Shown here: in pieces, positions 40,187 to 52,227 of the stretch | Layout of the letters: each line of letters opens with the position of its first letter | Position numbering within the stretch: the first letter of the stretch is position 1 | IMG/VR virus record: IMGVR_UViG_3300017598_000768 | Span: 1 to 64,000 of that record | DNA: 64,000 nucleotides | Reading direction: 5' to 3' (one strand) | Source of the DNA: a virus | The notes under the pieces: generated by a model | The model's input: the letters and a program-made list of their open reading frames with translations, nothing else | Databases searched by the model: none | What the model was told of the DNA's origin: nothing | Position numbers and translations under genes: made by a program

Positions 40187-41104
40187 TTAATGAGGCCAAT
40201 TCGACAGCCAGTCTTCGATATCCTCCGTCATCTGACCTCTAATAATTTTTCTGTGATCTTCGCAAGTCGACAGAACACTGTCCAAAATCGAAAACCAAAT
40301 TCGCCTGCTGCCTCTCCTCTGACTGTCAATAAATCGTGTGGCGAGATCTACACCTCCAAATAAATAATTCGCGATCGTTCTATTTCGAACATAATCGTCT
40401 TTGTTCCAGCTATACCCTCTCCTGTCTCCATGGTGATACAACGGCTCGCCCGGCATGATCCACTTCTTTCTGCCAGTAACAGCAAGGGCAAAATTCATAA
40501 AATTTTCGCCTCCGCCATAGATCCCAAGCTCGGCAGGCCAGCCTCCCAATTCATCATACAGTTTTCGGGTCATCATCATTCCGCACGTAGACATGCACGG
40601 AACCTCGTATGGAAAATCTGCATCCCAATACCCTTTAAAGGTATAATGAATATCTCCGACTGAGAGGTCTGACTTCAGCCCATAAATCAGCTTCTTCCTT
40701 TCAAGGATTTGATACGTGAGCGGAAGATGCATCGTGCCATTCAAAGATTCGTGGTTTTCTCTGTAATACTCGAACATCTTCCAAAGAGCCCCTCTCCCAA
40801 CCATGCAGTGGGCGTCGCAATGCCACAGGAACTTCCCGGACGAATTTTCTATTCCGACTCGCTTTGCATTCCAATGCGACAGCTTATCATTATATTTCAC
40901 AACCTTCAGCCATGGATGATACTTCCTGATCCCCCACATGTACGGGGTCCCTCTATCTTCTTTGCCTACTGACGGGTGAAAGTTATCGATCGCAATGATC
41001 TCAAAATTCACTCTTCCTCTAAGCTCCTCTACAATGCTCCGGATCGTGAAAACCACTTGAGCCCATTCATTCACGAACGGCACGATGCAACTAAGCTCTA
41101 TCAT
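40187..41104 (-). CDS. glycosyltransferase family 2 (GT-A)
   Basis: SCIVPFVNE, IIAIDN, CDAH (DxH, as in polypeptide GalNAc-transferase-like GTs), ELGGW..LGIYGGGE. Confidence 0.85.
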   Translation of the reverse strand: MIELSCIVPFVNEWAQVVFTIRSIVEELRGRVNFEIIAIDNFHPSVGKEDRGTPYMWGIRKYHPWLKVVKYNDKLSHWNAKRVGIENSSGKFLWHCDAHCMVGRGALWKMFEYYRENHESLNGTMHLPLTYQILERKKLIYGLKSDLSVGDIHYTFKGYWDADFPYEVPCMSTCGMMMTRKLYDELGGWPAELGIYGGGENFMNFALAVTGRKKWIMPGEPLYHHGDRRGYSWNKDDYVRNRTIANYLFGGVDLATRFIDSQRRGSRRIWFSILDSVLSTCEDHRKIIRGQMTEDIEDWLSNWPH

Positions 41105-41505
41105 ATCCTCCCTCCTTGTCTTCTGAAGCCACGTGCTTTCAACACTTCTTGCTTGAACTTCGGAAAATCACCTACCAACGCACTTGACAGATCAAGCACA
41201 TCCTCCACCTTAATCGACGCAAAATGGACAACGTGAGCAGAAGCGAGTCTCACCTGCTTCCCCTTCATCTTCTTTATCTTCGCTTTAAAACCTGCCGACT
41301 TCTTGATCAGACCATAATAATCTAAAGCGAGAACCAAATCTGTACCAACTGTTGTCCCTATTATCTTCCCAAATGACGAAGCCGTCAATCTTCCGTCACG
41401 AACGGCTACAAGTTCAAGCTGCCCGAGCACACCTTTGCGAACTCCAGACAACATCACCTCTTCTTCAAACCTGCCTAAATACTTTCTGAAGTCTGTTCTT
41501 TTCAT
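41101..41505 (-). CDS. hypothetical protein
   Basis: ATGA-coupled on both sides. Confidence 0.6.
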   Translation of the reverse strand: MKRTDFRKYLGRFEEEVMLSGVRKGVLGQLELVAVRDGRLTASSFGKIIGTTVGTDLVLALDYYGLIKKSAGFKAKIKKMKGKQVRLASAHVVHFASIKVEDVLDLSSALVGDFPKFKQEVLKARGFRRQGGRI

Positions 41506-42005
41506 TTTGGTCTCTTTATCATCCTTGCGGGCGATCCAACATAAATGGCTCCTGGAACGTCGCAGTTCTTTGTCACGTATGACATTGCCCCGATTTTTAC
41601 CCTATCAGCAATCTTGATACCGAAGTTTATCACAGTCGCCGTACCTATAAAAACATCTTCACCTACTATGATCGGGTTCTGGTGAGGATCTCCTTTGGCA
41701 TCCATGTAAATCGTCATCACGTTCGGAGAGATAAAAACATTCTCACGCACAATCACATTTCGCGCAATCGTAACCCCGTACTTCAGAATCGACCCGTCGC
41801 CGACTTCGTTACTTCCAGAGCTTCGCACATAGCTGTCAAGGATAACTCCGTGTCCGATTTTAGTCCCTGCCTTCAGATGTACGTAGCTTCCAATAACAGC
41901 TCCATTCCCAATAACAACTCCGTCTTCTATAACGCAGAAATGCCCAATGTTGAAATTGACACCTATATCAACATGCTTTCCTATGACATTACCATTCACC
42001 ATCAT
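41502..42005 (-). CDS. hexapeptide-repeat (left-handed beta-helix) acyltransferase
   Basis: [LIV]G hexad repeats, GAMSYVTK, YVGSPAR; start re-placed after GGAGG. Confidence 0.8.
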   Translation of the reverse strand: MMVNGNVIGKHVDIGVNFNIGHFCVIEDGVVIGNGAVIGSYVHLKAGTKIGHGVILDSYVRSSGSNEVGDGSILKYGVTIARNVIVRENVFISPNVMTIYMDAKGDPHQNPIIVGEDVFIGTATVINFGIKIADRVKIGAMSYVTKNCDVPGAIYVGSPARMIKRPK

Positions 42006-50095: not shown

Positions 50096-50809
50096 TTACA
50101 GATAGTCTTTCGGCACTACACGTACCTCAACTTCTCTTATCCTTATTTCGTTTCCTGCATGTGCAGAACCGAATCCAGTTAATCTCAAGTAGCTTCCCCT
50201 CTTGGAAGCACTAAATTCAATTTCATTCCAATCGTTATCAGTCGATATCGTTATTCCGGTAGCAACCAAATTACTCGCATCGTCTAACTCGTTTAATGTG
50301 CGAGAAAAGTAAACATCAAGGTTATTGAGCGCACTTCTTACATTCGTTTGTCTCCTGATTCTTATCTTGGTCACTTTCTTCCAATAAGATCGGAGTCTGA
50401 AATCTATCTGGTGGGCTTCATCAGTATTATGCTGCCAGAATGTAGTAGTACTACCATCAATCGCAAGGACAGCTTCGTTCCCAGTCTCTTCTCCGCAGTG
50501 TGCTTCAACTGCTTCTGGAGAATACCACTCTCCATCGTACAGCGTCATGTTATGCACTATCGTATCATAATCCAAAGCGTCGAGCTGGTCTTGTCTTTGA
50601 TCCAGTTCATCCTGAATTACCGCATCAAAACTTTCGACACTACTTAAACCCATACCCGCAAACATCATTTCTTTAATTCGGTCATCTAATGCGAGCAATG
50701 CTGTAAAAAAAGTAATGTCATCTTCCAAGACCGAACGCTCAAGCAACTCCGGATCAGTCCATATTTTAATGTTGTCCGCACCCTGCTTTTCAAATAGTTT
50801 TTGTGCCAT
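50096..50809 (-). CDS. discoidin/F5-8 type C (carbohydrate-binding) domain protein
   Basis: AIDGSTTTFWQH...IDF.L, Y.RLT, I.EVEV. Confidence 0.75.
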   Translation of the reverse strand: MAQKLFEKQGADNIKIWTDPELLERSVLEDDITFFTALLALDDRIKEMMFAGMGLSSVESFDAVIQDELDQRQDQLDALDYDTIVHNMTLYDGEWYSPEAVEAHCGEETGNEAVLAIDGSTTTFWQHNTDEAHQIDFRLRSYWKKVTKIRIRRQTNVRSALNNLDVYFSRTLNELDDASNLVATGITISTDNDWNEIEFSASKRGSYLRLTGFGSAHAGNEIRIREVEVRVVPKDYL

Positions 50810-50820
50810 TTACTTTCTCC

Positions 50821-52227
50821 TTACGTAGTTGTGGTGGTCGTACTGGTTGTCGACGTTGTTGTTGTGGTGGTGGTCGTGGTCGTCGTCGTAAATGTACTAT
50901 CAGTCGCCAGTCCAAGGTTCACCAGCGCAGCGATGAGAGAGGCTAAAATGGCCTTGGCGGCAGGGTCTGTAACGGACGATAGAAGACCAGTAATGTCCTG
51001 CTGAATCGTCGGTGCGGTACCGAAGAATCCCGCATTCGACCCATCGTGATTCAAGTCACCGTCAATCTCTATGGCATTGAGCAACATGTCGTCGTCGCCA
51101 GTGGCACCGATGAGTACCCTTCCTCCTCCCACAACGTCAGGATCAATTATTAAGTTCGTGGCATTGTAGTAAATCTTCGAATCATATCCGCCACCGAACC
51201 AGATCGCACCGCCACCGGGATCATCACTGTGCAGCACTATGCCGTAATCGTCAGTTGCTCCTGCTACAACTCCGATGTAAATACCGTAGTTGAGTGCCGA
51301 TGTTCCAACAATACTGTTGATCCATAAGCCACAATTCTTCGTATCGGCAGTTGAGAGATCTCCGACATACGCACCATACTGATTAACTAATGTCATTGTG
51401 CCAGTAGCAGTAGGTGATTTTTCAGTATTCTCAACCCATAGTCCAGCTCTATTTGTAATTGCTAAGACTGATGTGTCCTCGGCATTAAGCTGTCCAAAAG
51501 GTGAAAGTGGAGTAGGCGGAATCATGGCGAGAACCCAATAGTCTATCGTCATTACTGCATTATTAGTTGTTCTTGGTCTGGCAATATCACGAACAGCCAA
51601 CATATAGTCCATCGTTCCAACAGCAGCTCCGTCAGCGACAGCTTTGCCACGCTGATCCATTCCTACCATATCGCAAGGTGGTGCTCCGAGAGTATTAGAA
51701 AAGCACGTTCCTTCCTGTGCTAAAACCGCCATAGCATTAGACCACGTGGGACTCTTAGCTCCAAGCGATGTAACGACTACGGACATTACTAAACTTGAGG
51801 TATATGCCAAGCCCGACAGATGAGTATAATCCACGGTTCGCTGGTCATTTATAAGATGACTTGAACCAAGTGTACCTGCTACTGTGCTGCCAAATGCTTC
51901 TACGCAAATAGCACCCGCACCAAATAATACGGGATTGTGTATGTTGGGATAGAGCGATACACGTCTATCTATTATAAAACTTCCGCCTGTATATACGCCA
52001 CCTGTCAGCTCTGCGGCGGTAGCATCAAGCGTTAAATCGTTACCATCCGCCACGAGCGACCAAGTATTTATGCCAAGTTCCTCAAGTGTAATGCTCGGAG
52101 CTGCATGCTGAATAAGCAGACCACCAGTCATTGCCCTTGAGCCATCGATCAGTAAGTAATTAACATGATCATCGTCTCCCAGTCCTCCCAGTTGATCATG
52201 TTCACTTATTACTAATTCTGCTGTCAT
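50821..52227 (-). CDS. tail-fibre-like protein with a 22-residue C-terminal Thr/Ser tail
   Basis: H..L.GL.DDDH..YLL.DGSR.MTG N-terminus, beta-rich body, FFG..P; ends T12-S-T2-S-T6. Confidence 0.75.
   Translation of the reverse strand: MTAELVISEHDQLGGLGDDDHVNYLLIDGSRAMTGGLLIQHAAPSITLEELGINTWSLVADGNDLTLDATAAELTGGVYTGGSFIIDRRVSLYPNIHNPVLFGAGAICVEAFGSTVAGTLGSSHLINDQRTVDYTHLSGLAYTSSLVMSVVVTSLGAKSPTWSNAMAVLAQEGTCFSNTLGAPPCDMVGMDQRGKAVADGAAVGTMDYMLAVRDIARPRTTNNAVMTIDYWVLAMIPPTPLSPFGQLNAEDTSVLAITNRAGLWVENTEKSPTATGTMTLVNQYGAYVGDLSTADTKNCGLWINSIVGTSALNYGIYIGVVAGATDDYGIVLHSDDPGGGAIWFGGGYDSKIYYNATNLIIDPDVVGGGRVLIGATGDDDMLLNAIEIDGDLNHDGSNAGFFGTAPTIQQDITGLLSSVTDPAAKAILASLIAALVNLGLATDSTFTTTTTTTTTTTTSTTSTTTTTT

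Follow-up and report, generated by a model that had tools for sequence, protein, structure and literature searches.

A probable cassette for tag-directed O-glycosylation of virion proteins in an uncultured tailed phage

Results

A threonine-tailed fibre gene precedes a ten-gene cassette

The stretch of DNA analysed here (the window; 64,000 nucleotides) comprises positions 1-64,000 of IMG/VR virus record IMGVR_UViG_3300017598_000768 and includes a gene for a fibre-like virion protein that ends in an unbroken run of threonine and serine, followed by accessory virion genes and then by a cassette of glycosyltransferases, acyltransferases and methyltransferases (Table 1). A preliminary description of the DNA had read this arrangement as a phage-encoded system for O-glycosylation of the virion. 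The whole record is linear, measures 99,832 bp and has a CheckV completeness estimate of 86%; it derives from an uncultured tailed phage with a genome of about 100 kb. The minus strand holds essentially all genes, which follow one another, from high to low coordinates, as a head/tail module (beyond the window), the tail-tip genes, a block of small genes together with the region described here, and a replication module that begins with a family-A DNA polymerase. The tail-tip genes (56-64 kb) are of the gene transfer agent (GTA)/phiJL001 type (BR0599, Gp84_N, NlpC/P60 and Phage-tail_3/Rcc01698_C). A megablast search with the 12-kb region found no similar DNA in 50,697 GenBank phage records, and the nearest cultured relatives of the capsid protein, at no more than 50% identity, belong to phages of Stenotrophomonas, Vibrio, Aeromonas, Bacillus, Rhodobacter and Rhizobium.

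The fibre tail consists of F followed by T12, S, T2, S and T6 immediately before the stop codon, and is encoded by all four ACN codons (ACG, ACC, ACA and ACT) plus TCG and AGT; translation and codons thus agree with the run of 22 consecutive Thr/Ser residues that had been noted at first. The pattern (ACN)8 occurs seven times in the window against an expectation of 0.00 (100 shuffles), and these matches are confined to two sites, namely the tail of the fibre and, at 63676-63701, the end of the next protein with a poly-Thr C-terminus. The fibre protein has no match in Pfam, PHROGs or NCBIfam. Comparison with 42 homologues showed that all of them stop at the C-terminus typical of the family (...LGLIT(A) or ...DSTT) and that a Thr run is missing throughout, which makes the tail an appendage placed after a complete protein. 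Further downstream lies a gene whose product is similar to Gp77, the fibre-tail adaptor of podophage GP4; in two relatives (L013, L014) it directly follows genes for Ser/Thr-rich proteins.

The cassette (40187-47698) is made of ten closely packed genes, all on the minus strand and 3' of the fibre module. Promoter-like sites (20, against 21.8 by chance) and terminator-like sites (7, against 9.0) are not above chance level and therefore give no argument for a transcriptional break between virion genes and cassette, as the preliminary description had already supposed. The order of genes that it had listed downstream of the fibre was also borne out, except that a gene for a 134-residue protein, located just before the last glycosyltransferase gene, had been missed. 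As for the enzyme classes, a family scan covering the cassette and the large open reading frames (ORFs) of the window found Hexapep matches in all three supposed acyltransferases. Three of the four proposed glycosyltransferases are solid, and the fourth, a 203-residue protein that matches nothing in Pfam, PHROGs or NCBIfam, is a candidate GT-A enzyme on the strength of a structural lead from the Atlas. The first of the two methyltransferases scores at the Pfam cut-off; the second falls below it but aligns by BLASTP (1e-5) with a Methyltransf_24 protein of a relative and has the motifs LEIG..GG and DGSH. No membrane segment was predicted by hydropathy in any of the ten cassette proteins, nor did Pfam and NCBIfam searches, which covered the cassette and the large ORFs of the window, reveal an initiating phosphoglycosyl transferase, flippase, polymerase or ABC exporter among them.

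At least six virion proteins carry C-terminal tails

A survey of all ORFs of the 99.8-kb record, including the part beyond the window, showed that at least six virion proteins, the fibre among them, carry C-terminal Thr or Thr/Ser tails. The five that had not been described before are the major capsid protein, a head-tail adaptor (Ad1), a small basic protein, the major tail protein and a Dit-like tail protein (Table 1). All four Thr codons are present across the tails, and in relatives both the capsid and the major tail protein bear tails of T4 to T29.

Several features of individual tailed proteins deserve mention. The 84-residue basic protein, which is unannotated and whose gene has the head-tail adaptor on one side and the next connector gene on the other, has a Gly/Arg/Lys-rich N-terminal half, and its gene is preceded by a strong ribosome-binding site (AGGAGG); small Thr-tailed ORFs are found at comparable positions in three relatives (G004, G012, G014). 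The Dit-like protein additionally contains an internal, nearly pure Ser/Thr linker of about 155 residues (405-559), encoded beyond the window, which separates a DUF2460-like N-terminal part from a C-terminal part with a faint GH130-like match. The major tail protein measures 325-344 residues in relatives without Thr tails versus 178-202 residues in Thr-tailed ones (L041-L137), with L050 and L060 combining the long form with a short T4-T5 tail. The idea that the Thr tail substitutes for a C-terminal Ig-like domain of this protein was dropped, as Pfam detected no Ig domain in the long forms, nor any other identity for their extra part, and the C-termini of these forms finish at the same conserved motif.

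The last cassette enzyme resembles polypeptide GalNAc-transferases

The glycosyltransferase encoded at the 3' end of the cassette is assigned to GT2 in Pfam. IMG/VR contains 21 relatives of it at 40-60% identity, and metagenomes contribute more than 900 homologue clusters (90% identity), which carry generic names only. Among 21 family members, D97, H99, the GGGE motif (G197-E200) with the N that follows it, and H224 do not vary. Both motifs in which the preliminary description had seen a reminder of polypeptide GalNAc-transferases, DAH and YGGGE, are present and, at these positions, conserved. Consistent with this, a profile of the family aligns with seven distinct PDB entries for polypeptide GalNAc-transferases over residues 5 to about 243, placing D97-A-H99 on FLDSHC of GalNAc-T10 and YLDSHC of PGANT9, YGGGEN on WGGE(N) with Y replacing W, and H224 on the His of VGHIFR in PGANT9.

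Comparison of folds gave the same answer. The AlphaFold model of the enzyme is of high confidence (predicted local distance difference test (pLDDT) score 93.8, predicted template-modelling (pTM) score 0.92), and its 49 best Foldseek matches in the PDB are all polypeptide GalNAc-transferases (E 7e-16; TM-score over the query (TMq) 0.70-0.80). Independently of Foldseek, VIA-align superposed 283 of the 305 residues on GalNAc-T1 (8v9q_A; Z 26.8, root-mean-square deviation 3.0 Å) and ranked Toxoplasma GalNAc-T3 (TgGalNAc-T3; 8uhv_A) at Z 25.8, compared to 19.5 for the next family and 17.1 for TarP. The suggestion that a structural comparison would connect the enzyme with GT27 was thus upheld.

In addition to the GT-A catalytic fold, the phage protein has in common with eukaryotic GT27 enzymes (GalNAc-T1 8v9q, GalNAc-T2 4d0t, T10 2d7i and Toxoplasma GalNAc-T3 8uhv) the DxH motif in place of the usual GT-A DxD, the distal His and the (W/Y)GGE(N) motif, and the Thr run that is its expected acceptor would be mucin-like. 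Sequence identity is, however, just 13-16%, and the phage enzyme is predicted to be soluble and cytoplasmic, with no Golgi context. It has neither a ricin-type lectin domain nor an N-terminal type-II membrane anchor (highest 19-residue hydropathy 1.27) and over its entire length corresponds to the catalytic domain only (TM-score over the target (TMt) ~0.47); it is therefore likened here to a bare GT27 catalytic domain rather than filed as a canonical member of the family. We propose this GT27-like enzyme as a putative polypeptide O-Thr transferase, for which its co-occurrence with poly-Thr tails (see below) gives indirect support.

Among the 50,697 GenBank phage records, tblastn returned a single weak match to the GT27-like enzyme, in Tunturiibacter phage Tunturi_4 (L157, PP885687.1:1567-2565; gp2). 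The gene of this cultured Acidobacteria phage lies between terminase and portal and encodes a protein with 25% identity and a DNH motif; the portal itself ends in a Pro/Thr/Ser-rich stretch. Tunturi_4 was rejected as a test system, its capsid, adaptor and tail-tube proteins having no Thr tails. Another relative contains two tandem GT27-like copies (L027:10001-12051; 40% and 39% identity to the query).

A conserved enzyme pair brackets a variable middle

The upstream bracket of the cassette is a 433-residue GT4-type retaining GT-B enzyme, as its model (pLDDT 89.4) with the two-Rossmann-domain fold confirms. Its EX7E motif (E330 and E338) is invariant, and Foldseek matched it to MshA, BshA, SPS and PimA (E 5e-15 to 1e-10). 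VIA gave Z scores of 15-16.5 to generic GT4 enzymes against 12.1 for SdgB and 11.8 for GtfA (4pqg), so that the model shows no special likeness to either of the latter. No match to this GT4-like protein was obtained by tblastn in the same 50,697 phage records, so that the system has no cultured model.

All 20 full loci contain both the GT27-like and the GT4-like gene, in an order that does not change, and the two flank a middle of 1.2-8.9 kb whose genes are mostly non-homologous between loci. The shortest middles (L012, L017) contain just a GT9-like or unknown protein plus the 134-residue protein; the longest encode GT2, group-1 and GT9 transferases, several methyltransferases (including one of the sugar C-methyltransferase type), a sulfotransferase and a UDP-sugar 4,6-dehydratase. 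O-methyltransferases also recur among the variable-middle genes of relatives. Homologues of the 134-residue protein, a frequent companion of both conserved glycosyltransferases, occur in eight of 21 loci with the GT27-like gene and often directly upstream of the latter; fold and family searches (Pfam, PHROGs, NCBIfam, structure) gave no assignment for it. Fixed brackets around a variable middle suggest that many glycan 'serotypes' exist, as in polysaccharide serotype loci.

Threonine tails co-occur with the enzyme pair

In 14 of 21 loci, the coding strand holds runs of at least eight Ser/Thr residues no more than 10 kb from the GT27-like gene, the Ser/Thr-rich ORFs of these 14 being located just upstream of the cassette; among 13 control loci, fetched with the fibre C-terminal motif, no such run lay in a real ORF (0/13). 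Relatives sampled by their capsid or tail-tube protein include a large subset that is Thr-tailed on capsid, adaptor and tail tube simultaneously. Within 28 whole records of such relatives, 14 with Thr tails and 14 without, the GT27-like gene was detected in 11/14 and the GT4-like gene in 12/14 of the former, and neither in any of the latter (0/14 for both), six of which are 91-100% complete. When only records at least 90% complete are considered, Thr runs are present in 9/9 with the enzyme pair versus 0/6 without (Fisher p 2e-4; 5e-7 over all records), which supports the co-occurrence of poly-Thr tails with this glycosyltransferase clade that had been anticipated from the single genome.

The same association is visible at the nucleotide level: (ACN)6 occurs 5-67 times on the coding strand of records with the pair versus 0-1 times in pair-free records, and in the first set of 28 records it is absent both from the opposite strand and as a reversed-pattern control. 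One record with the pair has T5 tails only. Mapped on a capsid tree from which the tail columns had been left out, the presence of Thr tails requires at least six changes, four of them forced by well-supported branches, and the tail state equals the presence of the glycosyltransferases in 23/23 scored records. Thr tails are also present in five phages whose tail tube is related but whose capsid gene is not; the pair was found in four of them and not in the fifth, a 58%-complete fragment.

Other features of the genome

A nucleotide-sugar cluster, located 28 kb from the cassette, encodes a UDP-GlcNAc 2-epimerase (1.5e-58), a flavin-reductase-like protein, an NAD-dependent 4,6-dehydratase/epimerase, a DegT/DnrJ/EryC1 aminotransferase (1e-72), a methyltransferase and an SGNH/GDSL hydrolase; a tRNA-Gly(CCC) gene (8193-8267) lies within its span. 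In L017 and L018, the cassette itself contains or adjoins a homologue of the dehydratase. The view that the system depends on this cluster was rejected, because just 3/32 related records contain the DegT gene; the cluster is therefore accessory and particular to a few phages.

The family-A DNA polymerase (35705-39064, minus strand; 1119 residues) carries an N-terminal uracil-DNA-glycosylase-like domain, and its polymerase domain is interrupted at residues ~660-880 by an intein-like insertion with an HNH endonuclease; this insertion is variable, since the polymerases of relatives range from 849 to 1187 residues. Next to it, a 558-residue replication-module protein (34019-35695, minus strand) has a Phage_portal match below cut-off (5e-8) and is kept beside the polymerase in relatives at 46-52% identity.

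Table 1. Genes and clusters considered in this work. Window and record numbering coincide; 'genome' marks positions in the complete record.
Feature	Position	Strand	Assignment and remarks
Major capsid protein	genome 74231-75172		phrog_1623; ends PTTTV (short tag)
Head-tail adaptor Ad1	genome 73312-73974		DnaT_2/phrog_477; tail of 39 Ser/Thr
84-residue basic protein	genome 73046-73300 (L005:10046-10300)	-	Ser/Thr tail, ~33 residues
Major tail protein	genome 71220-71774		phrog_807; tail T11
Dit-like tail protein, 1218 residues	genome 63672-67328 (3' end in window, 63672-64000)	-	DUF2460/phrog_1082; tail S-T9
Fibre-like virion protein, 468 residues	50821-52227	-	C-terminal tail of 22 Thr/Ser (codons 50824-50889)
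Fibre-module protein, 237 residues	50096-50809	-	Weak discoidin (F5/8 type C) match, E 4e-5, below cut-off
Fibre-module ORF, 75 residues	49858-50085	-	No family in Pfam, PHROGs or NCBIfam
Fibre-module ORF, 460 residues	48472-49854	-	No family in Pfam, PHROGs or NCBIfam
ORF, 107 residues	48149-48472	-	No family in Pfam, PHROGs or NCBIfam
Gp77-like protein, 103 residues	47829-48140	-	PF23148, 1.8e-8
SAM (S-adenosylmethionine)-dependent methyltransferase, first cassette gene	46988-47698	-	Methyltransf_25, 7e-6; 27.0 bits vs cut-off 27
GT4-like retaining GT-B glycosyltransferase, 433 residues	45646-46947	-	Weak Pfam match, fold-confirmed; upstream bracket
203-residue protein, possibly GT-A fold	45044-45655	-	Atlas structure search, TM 0.66-0.73 to GT2 and RgpF clusters; lead
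Class I methyltransferase, Methyltransf_24 type, 219 residues	44388-45047	-	Pfam E 0.005, below cut-off
CgeB-type glycosyltransferase, 317 residues	43438-44391	-	Glyco_trans_1_2, 2.8e-19
Hexapeptide (left-handed beta-helix) acyltransferase, NeuD/PglB/VioB-like	42747-43481	-	Hexapep 1.6e-27; TIGR03570 3e-24, below family cut-off
Hexapeptide acyltransferase, LpxD/NeuD-like	41989-42750	-	Hexapep 1.9e-12; LpxD subfamily 4e-34, below cut-off
Hexapeptide acyltransferase	41502-42104	-	Hexapep 8e-16; true start probably further downstream, as the listed TTG start overlaps the preceding gene by 116 nt
134-residue protein	41101-41505	-	Homologues in L009, L010, L012, L015, L016, L017, L023 and L024 by position
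GT27-like GT-A glycosyltransferase, 305 residues	40187-41104	-	GT2 in Pfam, 4e-7; downstream bracket
Nucleotide-sugar cluster	7095-12219	-	28 kb from cassette

Discussion

Taken with the fold of the GT27-like enzyme, the co-occurrence of tails and enzymes and the presence of five more Thr-tailed virion proteins strengthen the original idea of self-encoded virion O-glycosylation, and we put the probability that the phage glycosylates its own virion proteins in the cytoplasm, directed by their tags, at roughly three in four. According to this reading, the tags would be the unstructured C-terminal poly-Thr (or Thr/Ser) tracts of at least six virion proteins, on which soluble cytoplasmic enzymes would act late in infection. 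The GT27-like enzyme, with a metal site formed by DxH and the distal His and with GGGE as its sugar-binding motif, would move the first sugar from a uridine diphosphate (UDP)-sugar to Thr hydroxyls, and the GT4-like retaining GT-B enzyme would add the second. The lineage-specific middle, here a CgeB-type glycosyltransferase, a possible GT-A enzyme, three hexapeptide acyltransferases and two methyltransferases, could then extend or tailor the glycan or its nucleotide-sugar precursors; the acyl- and methyltransferases may decorate the glycan itself rather than the precursors. The dehydratase/aminotransferase/epimerase cluster at 7.1-12.2 kb may be linked to the cassette, in which case it could supply an amino-deoxy sugar that is N-acylated by the NeuD/PglB/VioB-like acyltransferases. 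The expected outcome would be a dense, mucin-like brush of glycans over head, tail tube, tail tip and fibre. The tags, the folds and motifs of the enzymes, the constant gene pair with its changing middle and the joint occurrence of tags and enzymes are observed; that sugars sit on the Thr tails, which enzyme begins the chain, which sugars these would be, and that the phage would gain shielding, stability or adhesion from them are all suppositions drawn from the genes.

We further lean towards a more general proposition, in which poly-Thr is a portable 'glycosylate me' tag that can be appended to the normal C-terminus of any exposed particle protein (capsid, adaptor, tail tube, tail tip or fibre) and is read by the soluble GT27-like enzyme, with the GT27-like/GT4-like pair bracketing a fast-evolving cassette that yields a lineage-specific glycan 'serotype' of the virion, in the manner of an O-antigen locus. 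The GT27-like enzyme would then be the counterpart, in viruses of prokaryotes, of the initiators of mucin glycosylation in animals; its family is large and, apart from the weak Tunturi_4 match, has no member among cultured phages.

Several observations weigh against tag-directed virion glycosylation or leave parts of it unsettled. The phage is uncultured and known from its sequence alone, and its glycans are predicted. Three records with Thr tails lack a match to the GT27-like enzyme; all three are fragments (37-74% complete), and one of them has the GT4-like gene near its end. Nor is the co-occurrence phylogenetically independent: it amounts to two contrasts on well-supported branches and five on the best tree, and two independent contrasts are too few for a sign test to become significant. 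In conservation, the GT4-like enzyme equals its GT27-like partner, so that either might act first; the composition of the cassette is also like that of O-antigen or capsule loci; and the best PDB sequence match of the N-terminal half of the GT27-like enzyme (residues 2-129) is TarP (E 4e-7), a prophage enzyme that modifies wall teichoic acid. The last three points bear on the alternatives considered below.

GT4 enzymes such as GtfA and SdgB start protein O-glycosylation in Gram-positive bacteria, and it is conceivable that here, too, the Thr tags are O-glycosylated by a GT4-like enzyme acting first, as GtfA and SdgB do on serine-rich repeats, with the GT27-like enzyme extending the product. 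Equal conservation and constant co-occurrence of the two enzymes would fit such an order, and protein-glycosylating GT4s are indeed among the structural matches of the GT4-like protein; yet its model is nearer to generic GT4 enzymes than to GtfA or SdgB, and that of the GT27-like enzyme is well clear of every non-GT27 family. We thus consider this order unlikely and hold that the GT27-like enzyme most probably adds the first sugar.

A second alternative, to which we give only about as much credence as one would an outside chance, is that the cassette remodels a surface polymer of the host (lipopolysaccharide O-antigen, capsule or teichoic acid) in the manner of seroconverting prophages or TarP, the Thr tails being unrelated hydrophilic linkers. 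GT2, GT4, acetyltransferases and methyltransferases are typical of polysaccharide loci, some relatives are classed as proviruses, and TarP is the sequence match just mentioned; over its full length, however, the enzyme's fold is 6-7 Z units nearer to polypeptide GalNAc-transferases than to TarP, and its motifs are DxH, GGGE and His rather than TarP's DxD. Although O-antigen and capsule clusters likewise have conserved flanks around highly variable glycosyltransferases and tailoring enzymes, the phage cassette stands at the end of the virion block and, in family and hydropathy scans of its ten proteins, showed no lipid-carrier initiation, flippase, polymerase, export or membrane proteins. Remodelling of a host polymer would also leave unexplained why the enzymes occur only in genomes with Thr-tailed virion proteins.

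Glycosylation of phage DNA through hydroxymethyl-pyrimidines, as in T4 and relatives, was rejected as highly implausible: a review (PMC12619734) does state that phage glycosyltransferases often act on DNA, and a divergent thymidylate-synthase-like protein, which could be a pyrimidine hydroxymethylase, is encoded at 2042-2926 on the minus strand (a weak, partial match, E 3e-7), but this gene is missing from most records with the enzyme pair, has a weak match in one pair-free record and is thus not co-distributed with the pair, the GT27-like fold and motifs indicate a peptide acceptor, and modification of DNA gives no reason for the link to Thr tails.

Tag-directed glycosylation of the virion has its closest known parallel in mycobacteriophages. 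To our knowledge, these are the only phages whose glycosylated virions have been demonstrated experimentally, and their virion glycans alter antibody recognition. In Che8, Corndog, Myrna and others, capsid and tail-tube subunits carry glycans at their C-termini (Freeman et al. 2023, cited after PMC12619734 and PMC11256854). The phage described here resembles them in encoding glycosyltransferases together with C-terminal acceptor sites on capsid (PTTTV) and major tail protein (T11), from which a glycan coat is expected, in this case from the genes alone. Unlike in mycobacteriophages, its enzymes are not homologous to Che8-like ones, as the tblastn searches described above indicate (no GT4-like and one weak GT27-like match), and the sugars would be accepted by an explicit poly-Thr tag, which at least six proteins carry, adaptor, tail tip and fibre among them. 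Its cassette is, moreover, larger and variable, with ten genes that include acyl- and methyltransferases, and the nearest cultured relatives of its capsid infect Stenotrophomonas, Vibrio, Rhodobacter and Rhizobium, not Actinobacteria.

The logic of cytoplasmic enzymes acting on long, low-complexity Ser/Thr-rich tracts is also that of the serine-rich-repeat adhesins (GtfA/GtfB, SdgA/SdgB), which combine, as proposed here, one dedicated starter with variable extenders and include a GT4 enzyme in the core. In contrast to those systems, the closest matches of the GT4-like protein are not GtfA or SdgB, no GtfB-like partner or accessory Sec system was recognised (the 134-residue companion protein has no recognisable fold), and the presumed substrates, proteins of the phage particle, bear tails of pure Thr. 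Glycosylation of virions is already known as such; what sets the present case apart are enzymes with no kin in cultured phages beyond the weak match above, a tag of pure Thr borne by six or more proteins and a large, variable cassette. In the literature searched, no paper tied GT27-like enzymes or poly-threonine tails to phage particles.

If the proposed system is real, virion glycosylation would be widespread among uncultured environmental phages, and it would rely on two components, a peptide tag that is simple and transferable and an enzyme whose closest solved relatives are the initiating enzymes of mucin-type glycosylation in animals and protists, with a bearing on the evolutionary origin of GT27. 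Such a compact pair of tag and enzyme could serve protein glycoengineering in bacteria. For the phages themselves, it would change the view of the particle surface and of what follows from it for adsorption, stability and escape from grazers, lectins and immunity.

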